Shown: positions 22,524-51,475, numbered from the stretch's first letter. The stretch is 64,000 bases of DNA from Sphingorhabdus sp. (GCF_041737645.1 NZ_JBGSRI010000036.1:7154-71153), one strand, 5' to 3'. Program-made: numbers and translations. Notes: generated by a model not told the origin, from the letters alone.

Positions 22524-23793
22524 AATTACTGCCGAGCAACTTCGGGTCGGAATGTATGTCCATTCACTTGACCTTTCCTGGTATAACCATCCTTTTTGGC
22601 GGCGGAGGTTCCTGATAAATAATAAAGCGGATTTGACGACGCTTTTGGCGTTGGGAACCCGTGTGATTGTCATTGACGATAGCAAAGGTCTGGCTCCTCA
22701 GCCAAAGCATGATCCGGTTCCCGATGTCGCCAGCCTTCCTGCAACATCAGATTTGATCCAGTTCGAAGCGAACCCCGCCAAATCCAAGCCTGCGCCAAAA
22801 AGGCCGGTGCCAAATGGCCCCGATAGCACACCGATACCTTTGGTCGGTGCGGCGCGGAAAACGGAAATGCTGCGCGCTTCAAAAATGTTGTACCGGTCAA
22901 AGACCGAGTTAATGACCCTTTTCGGCAATGCGCGAATGGGAAAAGCTATTTCGACGCGCAAGATAACAAATCTGGTCGCGCAGATTTCGGATAGCGTTAC
23001 CAAAGATCCATCAATCATCCTGAATATCGCACGGCTGAAAACTAAGGATGAATACACGTTCCTGCATTCGGTTTCGGTATGTGCCTTGATGATAAATCTG
23101 GGACGCAAGTTGGGGCTGGATGAGGTAGTCGTGCAAGATCTGGGCATGGCCGGAATGCTCCACGATCTTGGGAAAATGACGATCCCTGATTTGATATTGA
23201 ACAAACCGGCCAAGTTGGATGAAGAAGAATGGCGCATTGTCCGCAGCCATCCGGAAAAAGGCCATGCGATATTATCCTCGGCAAAATGCGGGACCGAAAC
23301 CGCGTTGGATGTATGTTTGCACCATCACGAAAAAATGGACGGCACAGGCTACCCCAATAGAATAAAAGGGGAGGATTTAAGCCTGGCAGCACGGATGGCC
23401 GCGATTTGCGACGTTTATGACGCGATCACGTCACAGCGCAGTTACAATGCACCGCTGTCTGGCGCGGTTGCTTTATCTAAAATGTTAAGCTTGAAAGGTC
23501 ATTTTGACCAATCTCTGCTCCGTAGCTTTATTGAAAGCCTTGGCATTTCGCCAATTGGAACCGTGGTCCAGTTAACCGATGGTAAGTATGCCATCGTCAT
23601 TGGCGAGAATCCTGAAGATTTTTCGCAACCCGTTGTCAGGACATTTCGTGACCCTGAAAATCCGGAGTTATTTGTACCGAAGGACGTCCGCATTTCCAGA
23701 ATAACGGGCACAGTACAAGTTCATGCGATCATATATGATCTGACGCCGGAGTTGGAAGCGAAGGCACAGGACACGTCGGTTTTTGTGTCCTGA
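22513..23793 (+). CDS. HD-GYP domain c-di-GMP phosphodiesterase-type protein (DUF3391-like N-terminus)
   Basis: HDLGK and HHHEKMDGTGYP motifs. The N-terminus LRVGMYVHSLDLSWYNHPF is typical of the DUF3391 and HD-GYP architecture. The ATG at 22513 overlaps the PilZ stop (22521-22523). Confidence 0.85.
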   Translation: MLIEITAEQLRVGMYVHSLDLSWYNHPFWRRRFLINNKADLTTLLALGTRVIVIDDSKGLAPQPKHDPVPDVASLPATSDLIQFEANPAKSKPAPKRPVPNGPDSTPIPLVGAARKTEMLRASKMLYRSKTELMTLFGNARMGKAISTRKITNLVAQISDSVTKDPSIILNIARLKTKDEYTFLHSVSVCALMINLGRKLGLDEVVVQDLGMAGMLHDLGKMTIPDLILNKPAKLDEEEWRIVRSHPEKGHAILSSAKCGTETALDVCLHHHEKMDGTGYPNRIKGEDLSLAARMAAICDVYDAITSQRSYNAPLSGAVALSKMLSLKGHFDQSLLRSFIESLGISPIGTVVQLTDGKYAIVIGENPEDFSQPVVRTFRDPENPELFVPKDVRISRITGTVQVHAIIYDLTPELEAKAQDTSVFVS

Positions 23794-40431: not shown

Positions 40432-41118
40432 ATGCTCACCGCGAAACAACATGAATTGCTTCTTTTCATTAACCAGCGCCTGGAAGGCAGCGGTATTTCT
40501 CCTTCTTTTGAAGAGATGAAGGAAGCTCTCGACCTGAAGAGCAAGTCAGGTGTGCACCGATTGATCGGCGCGCTCGAAGAACGTGGCTTTATCCGGCGGC
40601 TTGCCAATCGTGCCCGCGCACTCGAAGTGATGAAAATGCCCGAAGGCGGGGGTAGCAGATCGGCAACGATTGCCAAGCTCACCCCTGCCATCGCTTCGAA
40701 CAAAGCGCAGGTCAATTTGCCAGTGGCCGCCAATGACGTTCTTGAAATTCCGTTGCATGGCAAAATTGCCGCCGGTGTTCCGATTGAGGCGCTTGAGGGG
40801 CAGAGCTCGCTTTCGGTGCCAATGGCTTTGCTGGGCAGCGGAGAGCATTATGCCCTCGAAGTTTCCGGCGACTCCATGGTCGAGGCAGGCATCTTGGATG
40901 GCGACTATGCCCTGATCAAGAAAGCAAACACCGCGCGCGACGGCGAAATTGTGGTCGCACTGGTTCGTGGTGAAGAAGCAACGCTGAAATATCTACGCCG
41001 TGATGGCCAAAGGATACGGCTTGATCCGGCCAATCAGGCATATGAACCGCAATATTTCGAAGCACACGAAGTTGAGGTGCAGGGCAAGCTTGCGGGACTG
41101 TTGCGGCGCTATCATTAA
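40432..41118 (+). CDS. lexA: LexA repressor
   Basis: N-terminal winged HTH ([12 protein letters not shown]...SPSFEEM), cleavage site region AAG, and the S24 peptidase motif GDSM...GD. I chose the ATG at 40432; the longest ORF starts at 40384, which would cover the SOS boxes. Confidence 0.9.
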
Positions 41119-43265
41119 GGGGCGTCTGCCAGCGCCTTTGCGGCGCGGGCGGCCTTTACCCAAGGATAATGGGCGTTGTTGTCATTAACGGTTACAAGCC
41201 TTTGTTGCGGTAAATAGAAGGCCAATCCGCCGGTTTCTGCCAACATCTTCCTATCGGCCTTGATCCATTTAGGTCGACATGAAGATGGCAGCCATCGGTC
41301 GCTGATGACAATATCAACCCGCTTACACGCCGCCGCCATTTCCATCGCCGGTATCGGGTAAGGTGTTCGGGTAGCAAGAATGAGCCAGCGCCGTTTGTCA
41401 CGGAGAATCGATATGATACAGATATCGTCCGAACATCGCGCCCCGGGCCATCGTTCGATCGCGATAGGCTCGGCCGATGTTCCCACCTTCTCCAAAAGCA
41501 TATCCCGCGCAAATTCCCCAACCCGCGACCGCAACAAGGATACATCACCATTGGCATCGGCAAGCGCCAGATGCTGGCCATCCCCTGTAACCAATATATC
41601 AGGTCGCGGTGCCAACACCATCGCGATAAATCCGGCTACCAGGGGTAAAAGCCCGAAGAAACGCAAACGGCTTTTCAACAATCCGGTAATCAGCGCGCCC
41701 CCTAGAATTGCCAGAAACGCCCAGAAAGGCATGGCAGGCAACATCGTGACAGCGCCCGGCAATGCGCTAAAATATCGCGCAATCATCAATATGGCTGCGA
41801 CGCCCTGCCCCGCAACCCACCAAAATGGCGCTCCTAATCCTGCGATATCCGCAATCAAAGCCAACGCTTGCGCTGGCATTATAATGAAGGTGGTCAAAGG
41901 AATGGCGATAACATTCGCAAGCGCGCTATACATTCCGGTGCGATGGAAATGGAACAAGGCAATTGGTGCCAGTACCAGTTCTATGGCTATGCCGGTGACG
42001 ACCAAAGTCACCAATCCGCGCGCCATACGGACGATGAAATTCTCCTCTTTTATTGCTGCCCATTGCATCATCCACGGCGTTTCATGCAAAAGCAAAATAG
42101 TTGTCACCGCTGCAAAACTTAGTTGGAAACTTGGCCCCGCCATAGATTCTGGCCAGATCAGCAATATCACGCAGGCTCCAAAGGCAACCAGACGAAGCGT
42201 CAACGCATCGCGACCCAAAGCCATTGCCAGCAGGATAAGAAGTGCCGCAATACACGACCTGATCGTTGGAACCTCTGCGCCTGCAAGCAACGTATATGCA
42301 ACCGCGCCCAACGCAGCAAAGCTCGCAGATAATAATGGAACGGTAAGCCGAAGGGCGACAGAGGGGATTAACGATAGAGTTCTATTACTCAGAAGAAACA
42401 GGAAACCCACAACCGCGGTGACATGCAAGCCGCTGATGGATAACAAATGCGCCATGCCGCTGTCTCGCATGGCCTGGGCGTCGACCGGATCGATATTCCC
42501 TTGATCTCCGGTAATCAAAGCAGCCCCCATTTCGCCAGTGCCATTGGGCATTTGGCTTATAATATGTCGGGTCAACGTGGTTCGAATGTCACCGATAAAT
42601 ACACCATTTTCAGAGCTTTTATAAACCGAAACCGGGCCTATCGCGCTTCCTGTAGCGCCGATTTGTTGAAACCAGGCACGTCGTGCAAAGTCATATCCGC
42701 CGGGCAATGCCGGTCCAGCCGGCGGCATGAGACGGGCGCGCGTATGGACAATGGCTCCGACCCTGAAATTCTGCTTTTCATATTGCTCGGGCTTAAGGTT
42801 GATCCGGATTTTCCGCGGCAGATTTTGAAGGCTTCCAGTATCCAACTCAAGCCGGACAACGTCGCGTGCACCGAGTATTTCTACTTTTGCAATTCGTCCA
42901 TACAGCGAACCAACCCAGATTTTTCCCAAAACTGGCGCCGCTACCTGTTCCGACTTTATCGCGATTGCGCCGTAGCCGACCGACAGAGCTATGCCGGCGA
43001 CAAAAAGCGAATGGCCCAAGCGGCCGGCAAGTCCAAAATATATTCCAGCAACCGAAACCGACCAAAATATCAAAAAAAGCGGGGTAATTCTGTCCGTGCC
43101 TGTGAGTTGCCAAAGCCCAATCCCTATGCCGATAAGCACAGGCAGCCAAAGCGAAAGCCGATCGCGCTCGATATTAAGCCAACGCTCAACCCTATCGATT
43201 CTACGATTGGGATGGATGAGATTCCCGCGACGTTCGCTCAAATAATTACGGAAAAACCCAATCAT
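41115..43265 (-). CDS. comEC: ComEC/Rec2 family DNA internalisation channel protein
   Basis: 716 aa polytopic membrane protein with a competence-domain pattern ([13 protein letters not shown]). Its stop overlaps the lexA stop (TTAA). Confidence 0.85.
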
Positions 43266-43541: not shown

Positions 43542-44828
43542 ATGTCTGAAAACAATGCAACGCTGACAATTGGGGATAACAGCTACGCACTGCCTATTAT
43601 GAAGGGCAATGAGGGACCTGACGTTCTCGACATCCGAAAATTATATGGCGTTTCTGACCATTTTACTTTTGACCCGGGCTTTACTTCAACAGCAAGTTGC
43701 GAGTCTGCCATTACGTTTATCGATGGCGACAAAGGCATTTTGCTTCACCGCGGATATTCAATTGAGGAGCTTTCGGAGAAATCCAGCTTCATGGAAGTTT
43801 CCTACCTTTTGTTGAATGGTGAGTTGCCTAGCAAAACGCAGCTTAGCAATTTCAGCCACACTATTTCTCGGCATACGATGTTGCATGAACAACTTGCCAC
43901 TTTCTATCGCGGTTTTCGCCGTGACGGCCATCCAATGGCGATCATGTGCGGTGTTGTCGGGGCTTTATCGGCATTTTACCATGACTCAACCGACATCAGC
44001 GATCCAACCCATCGCATGATTTCGAGCCACCGGTTGATCGCCAAGATGCCGACAATCGCAGCGATGGCTTATAAATATTCAATTGGTCAGCCATTTCTTT
44101 ATCCAGACAATAGCTTGTCTTACACTGGCAATTTCCTTCGCATGACATTCGGGGTCCCTGCAGAACCTTATGTTGTAAATCCGGTCATTGAACGGGCTTT
44201 GGATCGCATATTCATTTTGCATGCAGATCATGAACAGAACGCTTCGACCTCCACCGTGCGTTTGGCTGGTTCTTCTGGCGCAAATCCTTTCGCATGCATT
44301 GCCGCCGGCATCGCTTGTCTCTGGGGACCAGCACATGGCGGGGCCAATGAGGCTGCCCTTAACATGCTTCGCGAAATAGGCACACCCGACAGAATTCCGC
44401 ATTACATCGAACGCGCAAAGGACAAGAACGACCCTTTCCGCTTGATGGGCTTCGGGCATCGCGTCTATAAAAATTACGATCCTCGTGCGACGGTAATGCA
44501 GAAAACTGTTCGTGAGGTTTTGACTGAGTTGAAAGTTAGTGATCCAATTTTTGATGTGGCGCTTCAGCTTGAAGAAATGGCTCTGAATGATCCCTATTTC
44601 ATCGAGAAAAAATTGTTCCCCAACGTCGATTTTTATTCGGGAATAATCTTGTCGGCCATCGGTTTCCCGACCGAAATGTTTACAGTATTGTTCGCCCTTT
44701 CGCGGACCGTCGGCTGGGTCGCGCAATGGAACGAGATGATTTCTGATCCAGGCCAGAAAATTGGACGTCCGCGCCAACTCTATACAGGTCCGCAAATGCG
44801 CCCTTACCCGTCATTTGACGATCGTTAA
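43542..44828 (+). CDS. gltA: citrate synthase (type II)
   Basis: [14 protein letters not shown] and [14 protein letters not shown] motifs. I chose the ATG at 43542 (GGAG 7 nt upstream); the longest ORF has a TTG at 43536. Confidence 0.95.
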
Positions 44829-44832
44829 TCAG

Positions 44833-46182
44833 TCAGGAATTTGGAAGGCGGAGGACGAATTTAGCTCCACCGCCTTCTGAATCTGTAACAAAAAGATCGC
44901 CGCCCATCGCGCACGCCAATCGACGGGAAATATAAAGACCAAGACCACTACCACCGTCTCCAGATCTTCCAAGTCTTTCAAATTTTTGAAAAACTTTTTC
45001 ACGGTCAGCGCCGAATATACCTTTTCCCTGATCACTAACTGTCACTATCGCATATTTATCAGCCGTCTCGGTTTCGATAGTTATAGCTGTCCCGTCCGAC
45101 GAATACCGTATAGCGTTGTTAACCAAATTTAACATAATTTGTAACGTCCGCCGGAACTCGGCGATTGCAACTACATTAGTATCATCGGCAGGTGTATTGA
45201 TTTTAATACGATGATCCGCAGCTTTTAGCGCGAGCAATCCCGCAACTCGCCGCGCAACATCGCCCAATTCAATCGTGTCGCGGGCCGTTTGAAAGTCGAT
45301 TCTTTCGACAGCTTCCAAATCACCGAGATCATCAACCAAAGCAGATAAATGCCGCGCTGCATTGGCTATATCCCTGGCGTAAAGTGCATAATTTTCTCGT
45401 ATTGGTCCCTGCAATTCTCCGCCAATAGTTTCAGCATTGGCAATAATTCGTCCCAAAGGTTGCCTCAGTACCGGTGCCAAATTCTTACCAAAAAGATTGC
45501 CCGCAACATCGCCGTAGTTCGCCTCAACGATCGACAACGGTTTTTCGTAAAGTGGATCGAATCGAAGTCGAAATCCAAAAACAGCCTGCCGCTCGTCATC
45601 GATGATATCGCCGCTAACATCGAACGCTCTCCCGTCTGACTGCCGCTTTATTTGCATTGTCTTGATGCTAACTCCAGTGGACAGGGCGGATATAAGGTTT
45701 GCTAATGGAACTCCGTTCTCAAAGATATTGGTCAGCACTTCCACACCATTTTTACCAAAGTCGGAGGGCACCAAACCATGTGCAGCAATTCCTTTGGCGC
45801 TTATCAAGCGCCCATGGCGGTCAAATACCATCTGGTTTTCGATGCTGTCGGGCATCGATGTGAGTATCAAATTTCTTTTGTTTAAAACTGGCAATGCGCG
45901 CCAACTTAAAATCGAAACCTTCGCGAATTGCAGTGTGGGATGGACTTCAATCCAAAGTTCCAAATGGTCTTCATTGTCTGCAACACGCACGGCGCGAGAA
46001 AGCTTCATTTGCAAATTCAAGGATAGCTTCGCCAATTTGGCGATGGCGGGCACGGCGATCGCGCCACCCTCTACTCCGCCGGCCCTTTGATTCAATCGCA
46101 AAAAAGCTTCGTCAGCTCGCAGCAACTTTCCATCATTGTCAATTTCACCTGAAATAGGCTGGGTTAAATTCGGTCCACTCAT
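44833..46182 (-). CDS. cytoplasmic histidine-kinase-like protein (HisKA-like DHp lacking the conserved His, plus HATPase_c)
   Basis: The ATP-binding domain appears intact: N box LVNNAIRY, G1 DQGKGI, F box FQKFERL, G2 GGSGLGLYISR. In the DHp helix, FGKNLAPVLRQPLGRI aligns with the consensus F....SHELRTPL, which places Pro237 (nt 45472-45474) at the His position. No TM helices. The N-terminal 225 aa or so may contain two PAS-like folds. Confidence 0.75.
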   Translation of the reverse strand: MSGPNLTQPISGEIDNDGKLLRADEAFLRLNQRAGGVEGGAIAVPAIAKLAKLSLNLQMKLSRAVRVADNEDHLELWIEVHPTLQFAKVSILSWRALPVLNKRNLILTSMPDSIENQMVFDRHGRLISAKGIAAHGLVPSDFGKNGVEVLTNIFENGVPLANLISALSTGVSIKTMQIKRQSDGRAFDVSGDIIDDERQAVFGFRLRFDPLYEKPLSIVEANYGDVAGNLFGKNLAPVLRQPLGRIIANAETIGGELQGPIRENYALYARDIANAARHLSALVDDLGDLEAVERIDFQTARDTIELGDVARRVAGLLALKAADHRIKINTPADDTNVVAIAEFRRTLQIMLNLVNNAIRYSSDGTAITIETETADKYAIVTVSDQGKGIFGADREKVFQKFERLGRSGDGGSGLGLYISRRLACAMGGDLFVTDSEGGGAKFVLRLPNS

Positions 46183-47150
46183 ATCGTCTTCCCGGACGCG
46201 AGATATTGCGACCTTTCTGACGCCCAGTAACTAATTTCTTCCAAAGCAGATTCGCGCGTAACTTCCGCGTAGCTAGCCTCAAAAATTCCAAAATCATGCG
46301 CCGAAGTACGATTGCCACTAAATAAGAGCATATTGCGAATGGCATGGTCTTTATCAACAGCGCACGCGGCAAGCATTAACGCGTAAGGAGCAGAGGATTG
46401 TGCATTTAATAAATGTAAGACATGGTCATAATCCAGCTCCAAATGGGCGGACAAAGCAGCCACATGCAAGCGAAGACCCGCAACTTCTGGGTGAAGAAAT
46501 TCTTCAAGTTCAACACCACGGGTGAAATGCACAATTTTTCTTGCAGCATCCAGCGCTCGATCCGCTTCCGAATATTGCGATATGAGAAACTTTGTTGAAG
46601 CGATGATTTCTGGGTTCCTGCCGCCATTAACAATTTCCAGCGCTGCAACAACTCTCCAGCATAACTTGTGTAATAATTCAGGGGGTAACCCAAGGAAACT
46701 ATTGCCCGATCCGAAACGATGCAAGCTTTCCGCTGCTAACAAAGTCTGCGCTGAATCTGCGATGTGACTCTCGGAATTATCCAGTAATTTCGTGGCAAAA
46801 GTCGCGATTGGAAATTCCAAACACGACTCGAGACGGTCTTCTGCGACCCGCGCCAATGTAAAGTCGATTAAGTCTGGCTCTCGCAAAAACCCTGAGGACG
46901 CCAATATTTCCCATGTGATTGACATGCGCGAGTGAGCATTTGGAATTAACTTTTTTTCCAGATCCGATACCAGCTGGATCAGCTTAGTCGACACCTTGCT
47001 AATGATTGCATCAGTTGGAGGATTTAGCGCTTTTGGAAAAATAATTGCCGCTACATCTGTGCACATGGCATGGATATCGCGAGCATGGCTTGCTGCGAGT
47101 TTAGATAACCCAAAATTTTCGTTAAAACCGTGATCCAACGGAATTTCCAA
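46179..47150 (-). CDS. hypothetical protein (predicted all-alpha, no recognised motif)
   Basis: 323-aa ORF whose stop overlaps the kinase-like gene start (ATGA). No family was recognised by eye. Confidence 0.6.
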   Translation of the reverse strand: MEIPLDHGFNENFGLSKLAASHARDIHAMCTDVAAIIFPKALNPPTDAIISKVSTKLIQLVSDLEKKLIPNAHSRMSITWEILASSGFLREPDLIDFTLARVAEDRLESCLEFPIATFATKLLDNSESHIADSAQTLLAAESLHRFGSGNSFLGLPPELLHKLCWRVVAALEIVNGGRNPEIIASTKFLISQYSEADRALDAARKIVHFTRGVELEEFLHPEVAGLRLHVAALSAHLELDYDHVLHLLNAQSSAPYALMLAACAVDKDHAIRNMLLFSGNRTSAHDFGIFEASYAEVTRESALEEISYWASERSQYLASGKTI

Positions 47151-47200
47151 GCTGATTTCAGCGACAATGGTAACCGTTAAAGGTTAACGTCGTTTTAAGT

Positions 47201-48427
47201 CTAATCATTCTTTACATGTTTTCTTTCAGATAGATGCCGTCCTGCGATAAGGAGTAAAAGCTGCGCCAAAACTACGGCTTTTATCCCGATTGAAAATACA
47301 GACATCAAAGCTGCCAAAATCAAACAAATAACGATAAGCGAAGGCGAAAGAAGTAACGCTTTGACCCAATGAGGCAAAGTCAGACTTCGTGCCAGAATGG
47401 CCAACCCAATGACTACTGCCATAAACGAAATCGTGTCTGAACTATAGTAGCTGAGCGAATAAGAGACCACTAAACCAGACGTACACAATATTAGCCAGAA
47501 TATACGATCAGGCCAAGTTCGATTTTTCAGATCAAAATCGTTCCCTTGAACAACAAAATCAAGATAATTACAAAATAGGCAACCAAGTGCCCCGAAAAGT
47601 GCCAAGATCGGTAAGTCGAAAAATGCCAATGCGAGGCACACTAATGAAAGTATGATACCCGAGAAACTAGAAAGCGACAAAAAATTGTCGTTTGACCAGA
47701 TTCTAAGTGCCAACAATTTGGCAAAGGGTGCATAAAAGGTCCGTTCCACCCATCCGCTTGATACCTTTGATCGAAAATTGAGAATCAGGTTATTTAGCTC
47801 GTGTGCCTTGGCTTTGCTGTTTATTTTAGCGATGGCCCTATTTTGCAGGTGAACCTGCGGAACCATCAGGAATTCCAACTTCTCTTGGACTGCCTGGCGA
47901 AGCAATGAAGAAACTAAATTCCAATCATCGGGCAACTCTTTCATTTTGAAAATGACTTCTGCATTCATCGCAGCAAAGCCGGCCCAACGGGTATTGAGAT
48001 CAATTCGTTCAAAGTCCGCATTTTCTTCGCGGCTGTCAATTGCCGCAAGAAATGCTGTTTTATGAGCCATGAGATCGGCGATGAGTTCATCAGAATAAAA
48101 ATGATCCTCTGCCTGAATAATTAATCGCATCCCAGGCCGAACCAATTCCCGAAGATCATTTATATTTCGTGCAAACTCAAGAGACAGTCCTTCTCGCCGA
48201 AACCGATCAACCATTGCAAGAAGCGCACCCGACACATTGTCTACTTCAATTATGAAAAACGAACATCCTGCTCTTCTGAGCGCCATCAACTGAATTTCTA
48301 ATAAGCAATTCCCGGCCACCCTGATAGGCTCAACCGTATTGTGCGTGGAAGATTGCTCTGCGGTGGCATCTGCTGCCGAAAGAAGGGCGACTAAATTATC
48401 TTGATGAAAAGTGACCGGCATTATCAA
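47201..48427 (-). CDS. hypothetical membrane protein: nucleotidyltransferase-like N-domain (degenerate) fused to a polytopic C-domain
   Basis: 408 aa. The N-terminal pattern LVALLSAADATAE..(12)..PIRVAGNCLLEIQLMALRRAGCSFFIIEV resembles NTP-transferase folds but lacks the LAGGxGxR loop. The C-terminal roughly 180 aa has about 5-6 TM helices and no intact DGxxAR CDP-alcohol transferase motif. Confidence 0.55.
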   Translation of the reverse strand: MIMPVTFHQDNLVALLSAADATAEQSSTHNTVEPIRVAGNCLLEIQLMALRRAGCSFFIIEVDNVSGALLAMVDRFRREGLSLEFARNINDLRELVRPGMRLIIQAEDHFYSDELIADLMAHKTAFLAAIDSREENADFERIDLNTRWAGFAAMNAEVIFKMKELPDDWNLVSSLLRQAVQEKLEFLMVPQVHLQNRAIAKINSKAKAHELNNLILNFRSKVSSGWVERTFYAPFAKLLALRIWSNDNFLSLSSFSGIILSLVCLALAFFDLPILALFGALGCLFCNYLDFVVQGNDFDLKNRTWPDRIFWLILCTSGLVVSYSLSYYSSDTISFMAVVIGLAILARSLTLPHWVKALLLSPSLIVICLILAALMSVFSIGIKAVVLAQLLLLIAGRHLSERKHVKND

Positions 48428-48512
48428 AACTGATATGGGCTACGGACCCGCATTGCCAACAATATTATTTACAGCGCCCTGAAAGCAAGACAACTGAGAA
48501 TGTACTTACCAG

Positions 48513-48827
48513 CTACAATAGAATTTCGTGGGTCTCAATTTCGCTGATTGCCGCAACTATTTTACGTAAAACGACCGGATCTCCGGGTGCACCGTCCACC
48601 GCCTCGTCCGCCAATACCATTAGCCGGGTTGCCCCAAAACTTGCGGCAAGACCTTTTAGTCGCCAACTTGTATATTGCCAGTTTGCGTCACATCGCGACC
48701 GGGTGAGCAGGCTCAATTGCCACTTAGCGCTCTCCACAAAAGAAGCGCGAAGTTCAGCAATGAGATCATCATTTTCGCCGGCAGCAGCCTTTAATGCTGT
48801 GTCAAAAGAGCCATAATCCATAGACAT
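48513..48827 (-). CDS. Hpt-like protein lacking the phospho-accepting His
   Basis: 104 aa. WRLKGLAASFGATRLMVLADEAV matches the Hpt core H-x-LKG-s-a-a-x-x-GA but has Trp55 (nt 48663-48665) at the His position. Confidence 0.5.
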   Translation of the reverse strand: MSMDYGSFDTALKAAAGENDDLIAELRASFVESAKWQLSLLTRSRCDANWQYTSWRLKGLAASFGATRLMVLADEAVDGAPGDPVVLRKIVAAISEIETHEILL

Positions 48828-48897
48828 TCAAAACTTATAACGAACATAGAGTTAACTTTGCGTTTCCCTGTGGATAAAATATGGTAAACAGGATTTT

Positions 48898-51198
48898 ATG
48901 ACTGCACGATCAAAAATTGTTGGCCTGACAAGGCCGATAGAAGCGACCGAACTGGCAACAGATTTGCCATACGCTGAAGGCATAGCGGACGGGTCCCCTT
49001 TCATTACGGACGCGGACCTCGAAGGTGGCGATCTCCAATCTGATTGGGACTATCCCAATTCAAGTGCAAGCAGCTGGAAGGAATATATAATTCCATTCAT
49101 TATCCTTGCACTTTCAGTGTCCTGGACCGCCTTTTTTGCTTTTGTATATTATGCAGAAGTGTCAGGTGGACTTGCGATAGAACGCCTGGTTTATCTGGCC
49201 AGTATGTGGGCGACGCCTATGTTGTTTTTGGCGGTTGGCTGGTTACTTACCATGCGGCACAGCAGCGCTGAATCAGTCCGCTTTGGCAATGTCGCCCTTT
49301 CTTTGAGGCAGGAGAGCATGGCTCTTGAGCGCAGAATGCGGACCGTCAATGAAGAAATTTCCATGGCACGTCAATTTCTGGCGCAAAATGCGCTTGAATT
49401 GGAATCCGTTGGAAAAAGGTCATCCCAACATTTGATTGAAGCGGCCGGAATATTGGCCGAGGCCTTGGCCGACAGCGACGAAAAGGCCAAGACTTTGGAA
49501 ACGGTCAGTAATGCCGCGACGACTAATTTAGAGCAGTTACGCAAACATTTGCCTGTCGTCACCAGCGCCGCCAAGGATGTGACAAACCAGATCGGTAGCG
49601 CAGGAAGCAATGCGCAGCTTCAAATCAAACTTTTAATTTCCGGCCTGGAGCGCATCAGCGAAGCCGGCATTTCGACGCGGGAATACATCGACCAGGTTGG
49701 TTCTCGTGCCGATGTTGTTTTCGAGAAACTCCACAAAATATCTCGTGAGAGTGCAGCAACCTTGGACCTTGCAAGTACCGAGAGCGAAAAACGGGCAGTT
49801 GTGTCAGCGGAACTTTTAAGCGGCGCCGCCGAAAATATGGTTCAAAAAGTTGGATCCACTCTAAATAATCTGGATCATTTCGTACAAGAAAGCGCGGAGA
49901 AAATCGGCAAAAATATATCTGAGGTCGAAAAGAGTCTCTCAGGACTTTCCCAACAATCGGAGGAAGAGAGAGGTCGGATTTTTGCTATTATTGGCGAAGT
50001 TGAAAAGCATTTAGGATTGAGCTCGGCTAGAATTACGGAAATTGACCAGGCCGCGACAGACCAGACGGCGAAGTTGGCGTTTGCCGTTTCCGCGCTAAGC
50101 GAAAGCTCACGGGCCGTAGGCGCTGATTTGAACAATAATCAGCATATAACGCAATCACTTATGGAGCTTTCAGGCCGGCTGTTAGCCGCCTTAAATGCAG
50201 TTAACGAGGAAATATCCAACAAAATCCCGGCATCAATTGCTATGATGGACACAAACTTTTCCGCGGCAGCAGAGCAACTTAGCGTCGCGTCAAATAGTGC
50301 GGGTGAACTTGATTCACTCAGCGAAGCACTGATCGACAAAACAAATATCCTTGGCAGCTTGATACATGACCAGCGCGAAAATGTTGAAAAAATTATGGCG
50401 GAAAGCGACGCACATTTTGTTGCTCGCCACGAACAAGTGGAAACACTTACTGCCGCACTTGCCGAAACGCGCACTGTACTTAACGCGGTTACGGAGGAAG
50501 CACAGTCCAAGTTGAACGACTCGCTTAACGGTTTGCGTGAAACTACAAAAAAGGCAGCTAGCGACAGCCGCGAGATCATAGATGCAGAGCTTGTTCATGT
50601 GGCAGACCGGTTGATTGAACAAAATCAACTGTCACTGGCCAAGGCCATCGACGGTCAAATCAAGTCAATGAATGATCTTGTTCAAACCGCCGTTGAACGA
50701 AATCTGTCCTTGTCTGAATCTTCGACTATCGCACTTACCTCGCAGATAAAGGAGCTAGACGAGCTCGCAAACAATCTCGAAAAGCGGGTTACCGAGAGCC
50801 GTAACAGCTTTGAAGGAATTGACGATGACAGCTTTTCTAGGCGGATGGTTTTGCTAACTGAATCATTGAATTCCACGTCTATTGACGTTGCCAAGATACT
50901 TTCCAACGAAGTTACAGATACCGCATGGGCCGCCTATCTAAAGGGTGACCGGGGCGTTTTCACTCGCCGAGCAGTTCGACTTCTGGACGCGGGTGAAACG
51001 CGAACTATTGCAACTCACTATGGACAGGACGCTGAATTTCGAGAGCATGTAAATCGCTACATTCATGATTTCGAAGCAATGATGCGGGTTTTACTTAGCA
51101 CGCGTGATGGCAATGCAATTTGTGTGACACTGCTGTCATCTGATGTCGGCAAGCTATATGTCGCGTTAGCACAGGCGATAGAACGACTCCGCAATTGA
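48898..51198 (+). CDS. membrane-anchored long coiled-coil protein (two N-terminal TM helices and about 640 aa of helical repeats)
   Basis: 766 aa with TM candidates at about residues 63-85 and 97-118. The remainder is Ala/Glu/Leu/Ser/Gln-rich with heptad-like, apolipoprotein-like character. The C-terminal roughly 110 aa is non-repetitive (AWAAYLKGDRGVFTRRAVRLLD...GKLYVALAQAIERLR). Confidence 0.75.
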   Translation: MTARSKIVGLTRPIEATELATDLPYAEGIADGSPFITDADLEGGDLQSDWDYPNSSASSWKEYIIPFIILALSVSWTAFFAFVYYAEVSGGLAIERLVYLASMWATPMLFLAVGWLLTMRHSSAESVRFGNVALSLRQESMALERRMRTVNEEISMARQFLAQNALELESVGKRSSQHLIEAAGILAEALADSDEKAKTLETVSNAATTNLEQLRKHLPVVTSAAKDVTNQIGSAGSNAQLQIKLLISGLERISEAGISTREYIDQVGSRADVVFEKLHKISRESAATLDLASTESEKRAVVSAELLSGAAENMVQKVGSTLNNLDHFVQESAEKIGKNISEVEKSLSGLSQQSEEERGRIFAIIGEVEKHLGLSSARITEIDQAATDQTAKLAFAVSALSESSRAVGADLNNNQHITQSLMELSGRLLAALNAVNEEISNKIPASIAMMDTNFSAAAEQLSVASNSAGELDSLSEALIDKTNILGSLIHDQRENVEKIMAESDAHFVARHEQVETLTAALAETRTVLNAVTEEAQSKLNDSLNGLRETTKKAASDSREIIDAELVHVADRLIEQNQLSLAKAIDGQIKSMNDLVQTAVERNLSLSESSTIALTSQIKELDELANNLEKRVTESRNSFEGIDDDSFSRRMVLLTESLNSTSIDVAKILSNEVTDTAWAAYLKGDRGVFTRRAVRLLDAGETRTIATHYGQDAEFREHVNRYIHDFEAMMRVLLSTRDGNAICVTLLSSDVGKLYVALAQAIERLRN

Positions 51199-51199
51199 A

Positions 51200-51475
51200 T
51201 TAGGTATTAGGCGGTGAAATAAGAAAGTCAAAGCTATCGCGTGTTATCCAACCATAGTTATAGTTCGCATAATAAAGAGCAAAAAGCACGGCTGAAAGAA
51301 TTGTTGTTCTTAGTATAATCACGCCGGGACGGAAATTTCCGGGCGCGCTATCTGCCTGACCGGGTATTGTTTCCAGACCCAATTCTTCATGTGTTTTTAC
51401 GCCTATTGGCAATATTACAAAAGCGCTCATCACCCAAAAAAGCAGATAAATCGCAATGATCGATGTCAAGCTCAT
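51200..51475 (-). CDS. DUF1467 family membrane protein
   Basis: 91 aa with two TM helices and the pattern IAIYLLFWVMSAFVILPIGVKT..E......G...SAP. In the usual alphaproteobacterial position downstream of the nuo/birA/rnj block. Confidence 0.7.
   Translation of the reverse strand: MSLTSIIAIYLLFWVMSAFVILPIGVKTHEELGLETIPGQADSAPGNFRPGVIILRTTILSAVLFALYYANYNYGWITRDSFDFLISPPNT

Follow-up and report, generated by a model that had tools for sequence, protein, structure and literature searches.

The growth-pole-ring protein GPR (Atu1348) of Agrobacterium and its Sinorhizobium meliloti homologue RgsE (SMc00190) (PMC7327166) are membrane-anchored polar scaffolds that are required for rod shape (PMC7327166, PMC8262873). 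GPR is anchored by two N-terminal transmembrane (TM) helices, which are followed by an apolipoprotein-like cytoplasmic body (PMC8262873). In a published survey, RgsE homologues were reported from Rhizobiales, Emcibacterales and Rhodospirillales, and Sphingomonadales were not mentioned (PMC7327166). A second point of comparison is provided by two histidine pseudokinases: DivL of Caulobacter crescentus, which has no acceptor His and works through protein-protein interaction in the polarity and cell-cycle machinery (PMC4211667), and PsmA of Streptomyces venezuelae, which binds the coiled-coil polarity determinant DivIVA and its polarisome (PMC12963549). Among structural factors, GPR/RgsE is the leading candidate for the organiser of polar growth in Rhizobiales, and its occurrence has been regarded as mostly restricted to these bacteria. 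Here we describe a five-gene cluster that carries a compact version of it, of 766 amino acids (aa), across Sphingomonadales. The cluster was analyzed in a stretch of 64,000 nucleotides from Sphingorhabdus sp. (GCF_041737645.1, NZ_JBGSRI010000036.1:7154-71153; called the window below), where it occupies positions 44833 to 51198. It consists of the gene of the putative scaffold and, divergent from it, the genes of an Hpt-like protein, a nucleotidyltransferase (NTase)-like membrane protein, a DUF2336-like protein and a kinase-like protein. We favour, with about even confidence, a reading in which these genes encode a CtrA-controlled, inner-membrane-associated and cytoplasm-facing scaffold module, built around the short GPR/RgsE homologue, whose partners would work by binding and would not pass phosphate.

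The scaffold gene (48898-51198, plus strand) encodes a protein whose hydropathy predicts an N-terminal TM hairpin (TM1, aa 64-82, Kyte-Doolittle (KD) value 2.19; TM2, approximately aa 97-118, KD 1.53) followed by a basic stretch, a pattern that resembles the N-terminus of RgsE. The middle of the protein consists of about 500 residues of cytoplasmic apolipoprotein-like helices; PF01442 was matched at 3.8e-5 by the window protein, which is under the curated cut-off, and by 14 of 31 orthologues, the best at 1.5e-10, and a match to ApoA-IV was obtained at 5e-10. The most invariant part is a C-terminal domain of about 120 aa (aa 644-766; 50827-51195, plus strand), which has no Pfam or PDB family and is common to RgsE/GPR. 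A tblastn search of PLSDB with this domain led to a 2,089-aa S. meliloti gene annotated as "kinesin", which was taken as RgsE since its size fits SMc00190. The scaffold domain is 38% identical to residues 1970-2088 of RgsE over 121 aa (BLASTP 6e-19), the profile of the scaffold family matches RgsE residues 1976-2087 at 1e-28, and 33 columns of the domain are invariant in a joint alignment of Sphingomonadales and Rhizobiaceae. Moreover, the helical middle of the profile matches RgsE five to six times. Judged by its anchor, its helical body and its C-terminal domain, all of which have counterparts in GPR/RgsE, the protein of 766 aa belongs to the RgsE/GPR homologues as a short member, for which we use the name "mini-GPR". 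The two differ in length, GPR/RgsE having about 2,100 aa and RgsE about 5-6 copies of the helical segment; the scaffold orthologues mostly measure 760-930 aa, a few of them reaching about 1,050 aa, and thus fall short of the very large GPR/RgsE size. An earlier note on this DNA had described a 766-aa membrane-anchored coiled-coil protein, and its homology to a polar-growth scaffold had been missed.

An anti-phage defence system was dismissed, there being no PADLOC match for any of the five proteins, and the PDB matches of the scaffold to ZorA reflect coiled-coil similarity only. A second Shinella gene, located about 2 kb downstream of the rgsE homologue (locus L090, 11398-12816, minus strand), also matches the scaffold profile (5e-10), probably through coiled coil only. 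It is worth mentioning that several main chromosomes of Sinorhizobium and Shinella are filed as plasmids in the database used (CP090106.1, the 3.7-Mb S. meliloti record titled pSymB in which the 2,089-aa gene lies; NZ_CP069303.1; NZ_CP104127/31/35).

The four partner genes lie on the minus strand, and the start of the first of them, the Hpt-like gene (48513-48827, 104 aa), is separated from that of the scaffold gene by a divergent promoter region of 70 bp (48828-48897, no strand) in which two blocks are conserved across genera. It is followed by the NTase-like gene (47201-48427, minus strand, 406-408 aa), for which two starts 6 nt apart are possible, TTG at 48427 or ATG at 48421, the latter being the public gene call (406 aa), and then by the DUF2336-like gene (46179-47150, minus strand, 323 aa) and the kinase-like gene (44833-46182, minus strand, 449 aa). 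The last two are translationally coupled by an ATGA start/stop overlap at 46179-46182. The cluster is closely flanked on both sides: gltA ends at 44828, which leaves a stop-to-stop gap of 4 nt to the kinase-like gene, and the edge of the DUF1467 gene at 51200 leaves one of 1 nt to the scaffold gene. The five ORFs, the 70-bp and stop-to-stop gaps and the ATGA overlap are as given in the earlier note. The GC content of the cluster (0.42-0.49) is continuous with that of the flanks, and no REC-domain gene is present among the five genes. Since searches of Pfam and NCBIfam with single proteins yielded little for three of the five, whole orthologue sets had to be scanned.

The distribution of the cluster was analyzed in two scans. 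In the genome scan, performed with the kinase-like protein as query and one genome per species, at least 534 relatives were detected and the best 80, all from Sphingomonadales, were examined; in the metagenome scan, the closest 80 loci among 563 matches were examined, recovered by the C-terminal domain of the scaffold. Both scans cover the loci nearest to the query, and Emcibacterales and Rhodospirillales (PMC7327166) lie outside the sample. In essentially all 80 genomes the genes run from coaX, RNase J and DUF1467 through the divergently oriented scaffold gene, then Hpt, the NTase-like gene, the DUF2336 slot and the kinase, to a convergent gltA and comEC, as seen in Sphingorhabdus, Sphingopyxis, Parasphingorhabdus, Novosphingobium, Sphingobium and Aurantiacibacter. 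The linkage on which the earlier note had made its reading depend is confirmed across Sphingomonadales genera, and the translational coupling of the DUF2336-like and kinase-like genes is conserved as well. The same five genes were found in Sphingomonas parapaucimobilis. Distant contigs with an Hpt-like gene carry the scaffold, the divergent Hpt, the NTase-like gene and the kinase, with or without DUF2336, next to other flanking genes; in about 45 of the 50 metagenome loci having enough flank, out of the 80 recovered, the Hpt-like and scaffold genes are divergently oriented, and some loci (L135, L150 and L159) retain the scaffold and Hpt-like pair only. Since synteny extends to the housekeeping genes around the cluster, linkage inside the order is weaker evidence than it seems, and these variant architectures, together with the pairing in another order described below, weigh most.

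A small Hpt gene likewise lies next to rgsE, in divergent orientation, in both Sinorhizobium and Shinella. It matches Pfam Hpt with 37 and 35 bits, respectively, and retains the His in the motif AHRLKG, whereas the Hpt-like partner of the mini-GPR gene has lost it. No homologue of the NTase-like protein or the pseudo-kinase was found adjoining rgsE at the Sinorhizobium and Shinella loci, so that the IPCT-DIPPS-like, DUF2336 and pseudo-kinase genes described below are attached to the short scaffold only. A pairwise BLASTP comparison of the window Hpt-like protein with the S. meliloti Hpt was not significant, and the putative orthology of the rhizobial and sphingomonad genes relies on position and on generic Hpt profile matches. 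Single-domain Hpt genes are rare, and their occurrence in the same arrangement in two orders makes chance an unlikely explanation of the scaffold-Hpt pairing. An Hpt partner in both orders would represent a concrete regulatory link for gpr/rgsE. We consider it possible, with clearly less confidence than we place in the scaffold module, that an ancient partnership between the GPR family and Hpt is preserved here; a His-bearing Hpt may wire rhizobial polar growth to a phosphorelay, and in Sphingomonadales, with a pseudo-Hpt, an ATP-binding pseudo-kinase, a pseudo-IPCT-DIPPS and a DUF2336 protein, the partnership may have turned phosphorylation-independent, so that an organiser of the pole or envelope would be coupled to the CtrA cell-cycle circuit in bacteria without polar growth. 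The literature search, which covered DUF2336, sphingomonad pseudokinases and the rgsE and gpr loci, revealed no description of the module, nor of an Hpt gene beside rgsE or gpr. The earlier note's statement that the combination is not a described system agrees with this result, with the correction that the cluster is anchored to a known system of the GPR/RgsE type.

By sequence, three of the five proteins lack the residues that define the chemistry of their families, and the kinase-like protein is the first of these. It matches Pfam HATPase_c at 1e-23, and its HisKA match starts only downstream of the H-box. When a profile of 16 kinase-like homologues was aligned to T. maritima HK853, the sequence "fGkhlaPvlrqPl" of the profile was paired with "FIANISHELRTPL" of HK853, which puts Pro237 on the phospho-acceptor His. 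Pro occupies this site in 118 of the 120 best database homologues, and a profile alignment of 103 family members from genomes and metagenomes gave P83, R7, T4, K3, L3, S2 and V1 in the H-site column. His was found in none of them, so the Pro that the earlier note had placed at the DHp acceptor position was not a product of misalignment. The neighbours of the site that assist the kinase and phosphatase reactions are also replaced, the acid at H+1 by Val or Ala and the Thr/Asn at H+4 by Gln. His278 (AARHL) was considered as a substitute acceptor and rejected, because the corresponding helix-2 position of HK853 is occupied by a His too. Conservation of DHp helix 1 is extremely high, which would be expected of a binding interface, and no change was seen in the N, G1, F and G2 boxes, which are intact and do not vary within the family (LNLVNNAIRYS, DQGxGI, FEKFERL and GGSGLGLYISR, respectively). 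The kinase-like protein is accordingly best described, as far as its motifs tell, as a pseudo-kinase at the acceptor whose ATP-binding module is not dead. The earlier suggestion that all catalytic motifs of the cluster are substituted holds for the acceptor His and was overstated for nucleotide binding.

The N-terminal domain of the kinase-like protein, of about 230 aa, is conserved within its family and was matched neither by a PDB entry in a profile search nor by a Pfam family; no TM segment was found in the protein. In lacking the acceptor His of a HisKA/HATPase protein it is similar to DivL and PsmA. However, DivL has a Tyr at the acceptor site, in contrast to Pro (or R, T, K, L, S or V) in the kinase-like family, and the kinase-like protein differs from both in its novel N-terminal domain, with no PAS or TM array detected, and in its fully conserved CA domain. 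Its sequence relationship to the two pseudokinases covers the generic kinase core only.

The Hpt-like protein shows a comparable loss. The window protein scores 14.2 bits against Pfam Hpt (PF01627), below the cut-off of 24.6, whereas 38 of 50 family members match the model, the best at 8e-8; against the PDB, LuxU was matched at 0.035. The canonical HxLKGxAxxxGA reads SWRLKGLAASFGA in the window protein, with Trp at the acceptor position, as had been noted before. When 1.84 billion representatives were searched exhaustively with HMMER, only 124 related clusters were obtained, in 93 of which, those bearing the motif, the acceptor position is hypervariable (L24, W15, A10, H8, M6, R6, E5 and others) and the flank RLKGLAASFGA is conserved. 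The substitution is therefore a feature of the family and not an alignment error. Cluster names identified only one organism, Qipengyuania, among the distant relatives. The Hpt-like protein is the most conserved product of the four-gene operon, with 40-93% identity across genera and 60-93% in most of the 80 genomes compared, and Ser62 (AASFGA) is near-invariant. A true phosphotransfer protein would be expected to keep its His; the fact that this family varies it suggests that the surface, and not the residue, has been maintained. In Arabidopsis, pseudo-HPt proteins of the AHP6 type have an Hpt fold without the acceptor His and are thought to occupy docking surfaces. The likeness is limited to that absence, as AHP6 belongs to another kingdom and shares no ancestry beyond the fold; additionally, the acceptor position is hypervariable and not fixed in the Hpt-like family, whose gene is linked to that of a membrane scaffold. 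A 2,696-aa ORF (P0257) with 39 short "Hpt" repeats (7e-37) was rejected as a relative, being a compositional artefact of a tandem-repeat ORF.

The strongest competitor of the scaffold module takes the intact boxes of the kinase at face value. Their invariance implies selection for nucleotide binding, and the CA domain might carry out a working, non-canonical phosphorylation of a Ser/Thr or other residue on a partner, for example of Ser62, which is near-invariant in the Hpt-like family, in the manner of the GHKL Ser kinases SpoIIAB and RsbW; the predicted co-transcription of the kinase with its partners would suit such a pathway. We regard it as improbable, since catalysis itself is supported by nothing and the residues flanking the H-site have been replaced together with the His. 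Moreover, the conservation of DHp helix 1 fits a binding interface, and variants occur in which Hpt and kinase are apart. If the scaffold module is real, the cluster contains a rare bacterial kinase-Hpt pair that has lost the acceptors in both halves and has nevertheless remained under strong selection.

The NTase-like protein combines a cytoplasmic nucleotidyltransferase-like domain with a 6-TM domain resembling the CDP-alcohol phosphotransferases. Its AlphaFold2 (AF2) model (predicted local distance difference test, pLDDT, 83.5) gave as top Foldseek match the A. fulgidus IPCT-DIPPS structure 4mnd, over the full length (442 columns, E 8e-9, TM-score 0.57), followed by the CDP-alcohol phosphotransferase AF2299; the family profile matches 4mnd at 5.7e-5 and sugar-1-phosphate nucleotidyltransferases at about 1e-4 in the PDB. 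The protein shares with these enzymes the two-domain architecture and the fold. It differs in that both signature motifs are missing: the glycine-rich GxGxR loop for nucleoside triphosphates is absent from the 32 orthologues compared, which have a variable stretch with insertions instead, and the motif D(x)2DG(x)2AR...G(x)3D(x)3D (TM2-TM3) is absent from the query consensus opposite LDGCDGEIAR of 4mnd. Residues 20-29 have a pLDDT below 50 and are disordered in the model. Only Q45, E139, D142 and R176 are invariant in the same 32 orthologues, with R140 nearly so, and none of the invariant residues lies in the TM domain. These results agree with the earlier reading of a dead enzyme with an NTase-like fold and no glycine-rich loop.

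The same fold lends some colour to another alternative, according to which the cluster would be devoted to the biosynthesis or transport of envelope lipids: a divergent but active IPCT-DIPPS-like enzyme would make a head group specific to Sphingomonadales, and the apolipoprotein-like protein would handle the lipid. The fold extends over the full length, the FERID and LLRxA motifs are conserved in the cytoplasmic domain, and the repeats of the scaffold are apolipoprotein-like, a lipid role having been suggested for GPR (PMC8262873). Nevertheless, we find this alternative very unlikely. Besides the missing loop, the missing CDP-alcohol motif and a TM domain without invariant residues, none of the 32 orthologues matches any Pfam family, of enzymes or otherwise, and the identity of 22-53% between genera is unlike that of a housekeeping enzyme.

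The fourth partner, which had been called a helical protein of unknown family, turned out to have relatives in Pfam. The window protein itself gives no match to PF10098, as it falls under detection; however, 17 of its 47 orthologues match this model, the best at 3e-8, and Sphingobium proteins in the same slot do so as well, one of them with 37.8 against a cut-off of 34.6. In addition, the slot protein of one distant locus (L091) bears a precomputed DUF2336 Pfam label. We conclude from these profile matches that the helical protein is most likely a divergent DUF2336. In common with its orthologues it is all-helical, with lengths of about 320-370 aa in the family, and its AF2 model has a pLDDT of 85 and a predicted TM-score (pTM) of 0.86. 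No fold match was obtained in the PDB, nothing being better than E 0.24, and PF10098 is itself without a solved structure. No paper giving DUF2336 a function was found in the literature search; the cluster would provide the first functional context for this family, as well as for the new N-terminal domain of the kinase.

A further feature, which had been missed in the earlier note, is the presence of CtrA-type boxes. A perfect box TTAA-N7-TTAAC is located at 47183-47198, on the same (minus) strand as the genes, where 50 bp separate the NTase-like gene from that of DUF2336, and it is the sole perfect match in the 64-kb window (0.22 expected). Of 72 genomes, 69 have a box with at most one mismatch on the gene strand at this junction, ahead of the DUF2336 and kinase genes, which is exact in 34 of them, against a background of 1.3% of 160-bp windows. 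The half-sites are conserved and the 7-bp spacer is free, and a GCTAnA-like -10 element lies 9-10 nt downstream. In variants without DUF2336, a box TTAG-N7-TTAAC is located directly upstream of the kinase gene. A TTAA-N7-TTAAC box over the -35 region is the architecture of Caulobacter CtrA-dependent promoters, and the box at 47183-47198 is probably the internal promoter of the DUF2336 and pseudo-kinase genes. A second, degenerate CtrA-like box, GAAA-N7-TTAAC (48851-48866, minus strand), is present in a conserved block of the 70-bp divergent region. The relaxed pattern KAAA-N7-TTAAC occurs twice in the window, against 0.63 expected, the other match being GAAAAGGGTCATTAAC at 22908-22923 (minus strand). 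An EcfG-type promoter (GGAAC...CGTT) in the divergent region was rejected by eye, the spacing being wrong and CGTT not conserved. Half-sites of the form TTAACCAT were also observed between rgsE and the Hpt gene in S. meliloti (locus L088, 2700-2800) and Shinella (locus L090, 3250-3335), and the Shinella intergenic region has an exact TTAA-N7-TTAA as well. There are hints that GPR-family genes may be CtrA targets in Rhizobiaceae too.

Taken together, the scaffold module that we favour would work as follows. Its core would be the mini-GPR, anchored in the inner membrane, with the pseudo-Hpt, the IPCT-DIPPS-like protein, DUF2336 and the His-less kinase as adaptors or regulatory subunits; according to models and hydropathy, all five products are cytoplasmic or inner-membrane-anchored. 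The conserved surface xRLKGLAASFGA of the pseudo-Hpt could serve as a docking face, and nucleotide binding by the kinase-like protein might act as a conformational switch, as in DivL and PsmA without phosphotransfer. A CtrA-type promoter would drive at least the DUF2336-kinase pair and would link the module to the alphaproteobacterial programme of cell cycle and polarity. In this way, four co-evolving pseudo-signalling and pseudo-enzyme proteins would be placed under a CtrA-type promoter. From these features we infer that the proteins form a complex, that its expression depends on CtrA and that it helps to organise the pole or cell envelope. The earlier proposal of a scaffold or pseudo-phosphorelay was reasonable in so far as the acceptors are lost family-wide and the genes are linked, and has to be amended for the ATP-binding domain of the kinase, which is not dead. 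Sphingomonadales are tractable, and CtrA is often non-essential in them.

Several observations weigh against the scaffold module. Sphingomonadales are not known for polar growth, and the other Rgs proteins are reported to be mostly missing from orders other than Rhizobiales (PMC7327166), so that the homologue may have a different role. The ATP-binding domain of the kinase is perfectly conserved and might be catalytically active. The synteny of the entire neighbourhood within the order, mentioned above, counts here too, and Hpt, DUF2336 or the kinase has disappeared from some lineages, which implies that the complex is not obligatory. The assignment to CtrA relies on the Caulobacter consensus, and the site in the divergent promoter is degenerate and weaker than the internal box, with at most one mismatch to the full consensus in 12 of 58 loci only.

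The view that the cluster is a decaying remnant of an old two-component operon, held together by synteny only, can appeal to the lost acceptor residues and catalytic motifs, to the erosion seen in freshwater Sphingorhabdus (deletions of 160 bp in Hpt and about 690 bp in DUF2336) and to loci with the scaffold and NTase-like genes only, but it is effectively refuted by ORFs that are intact in hundreds of species (at least 534 genome and 563 metagenome matches), by the 60-93% identity of the Hpt-like protein, by long invariant stretches in the kinase and in the C-terminal domain of the scaffold, and by the conservation of promoter elements and translational coupling. With the module present in more than 500 species and the substitutions being conserved family features, the cluster is a module and not the product of decay, and the earlier argument against random decay was correct.

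Three metagenome-assembled genomes of freshwater Sphingorhabdus (L026, L027 and L028) share a common 160-bp deletion in the Hpt-like gene, and two of them also have the deletion of about 690 bp in DUF2336; the scaffold, the NTase-like gene and, mostly, the kinase are intact. It looks as if a streamlined lineage were losing the module step by step. Two contigs from lake metagenomes (L096 and L097) carry the scaffold and the NTase-like gene only. In S. parapaucimobilis (L089, 9537-10663), genes for a VOC-family protein and a YafY-family regulator are located between the scaffold and DUF1467 genes, and the 1-nt junction is broken. On the opposite side of the cluster, upstream of gltA, a 716-aa ORF (41115-43265, minus strand), which by its look we take to be comEC, keeps its place beside the cluster in nearly every genome, and the conserved block therefore reaches well past the five genes.

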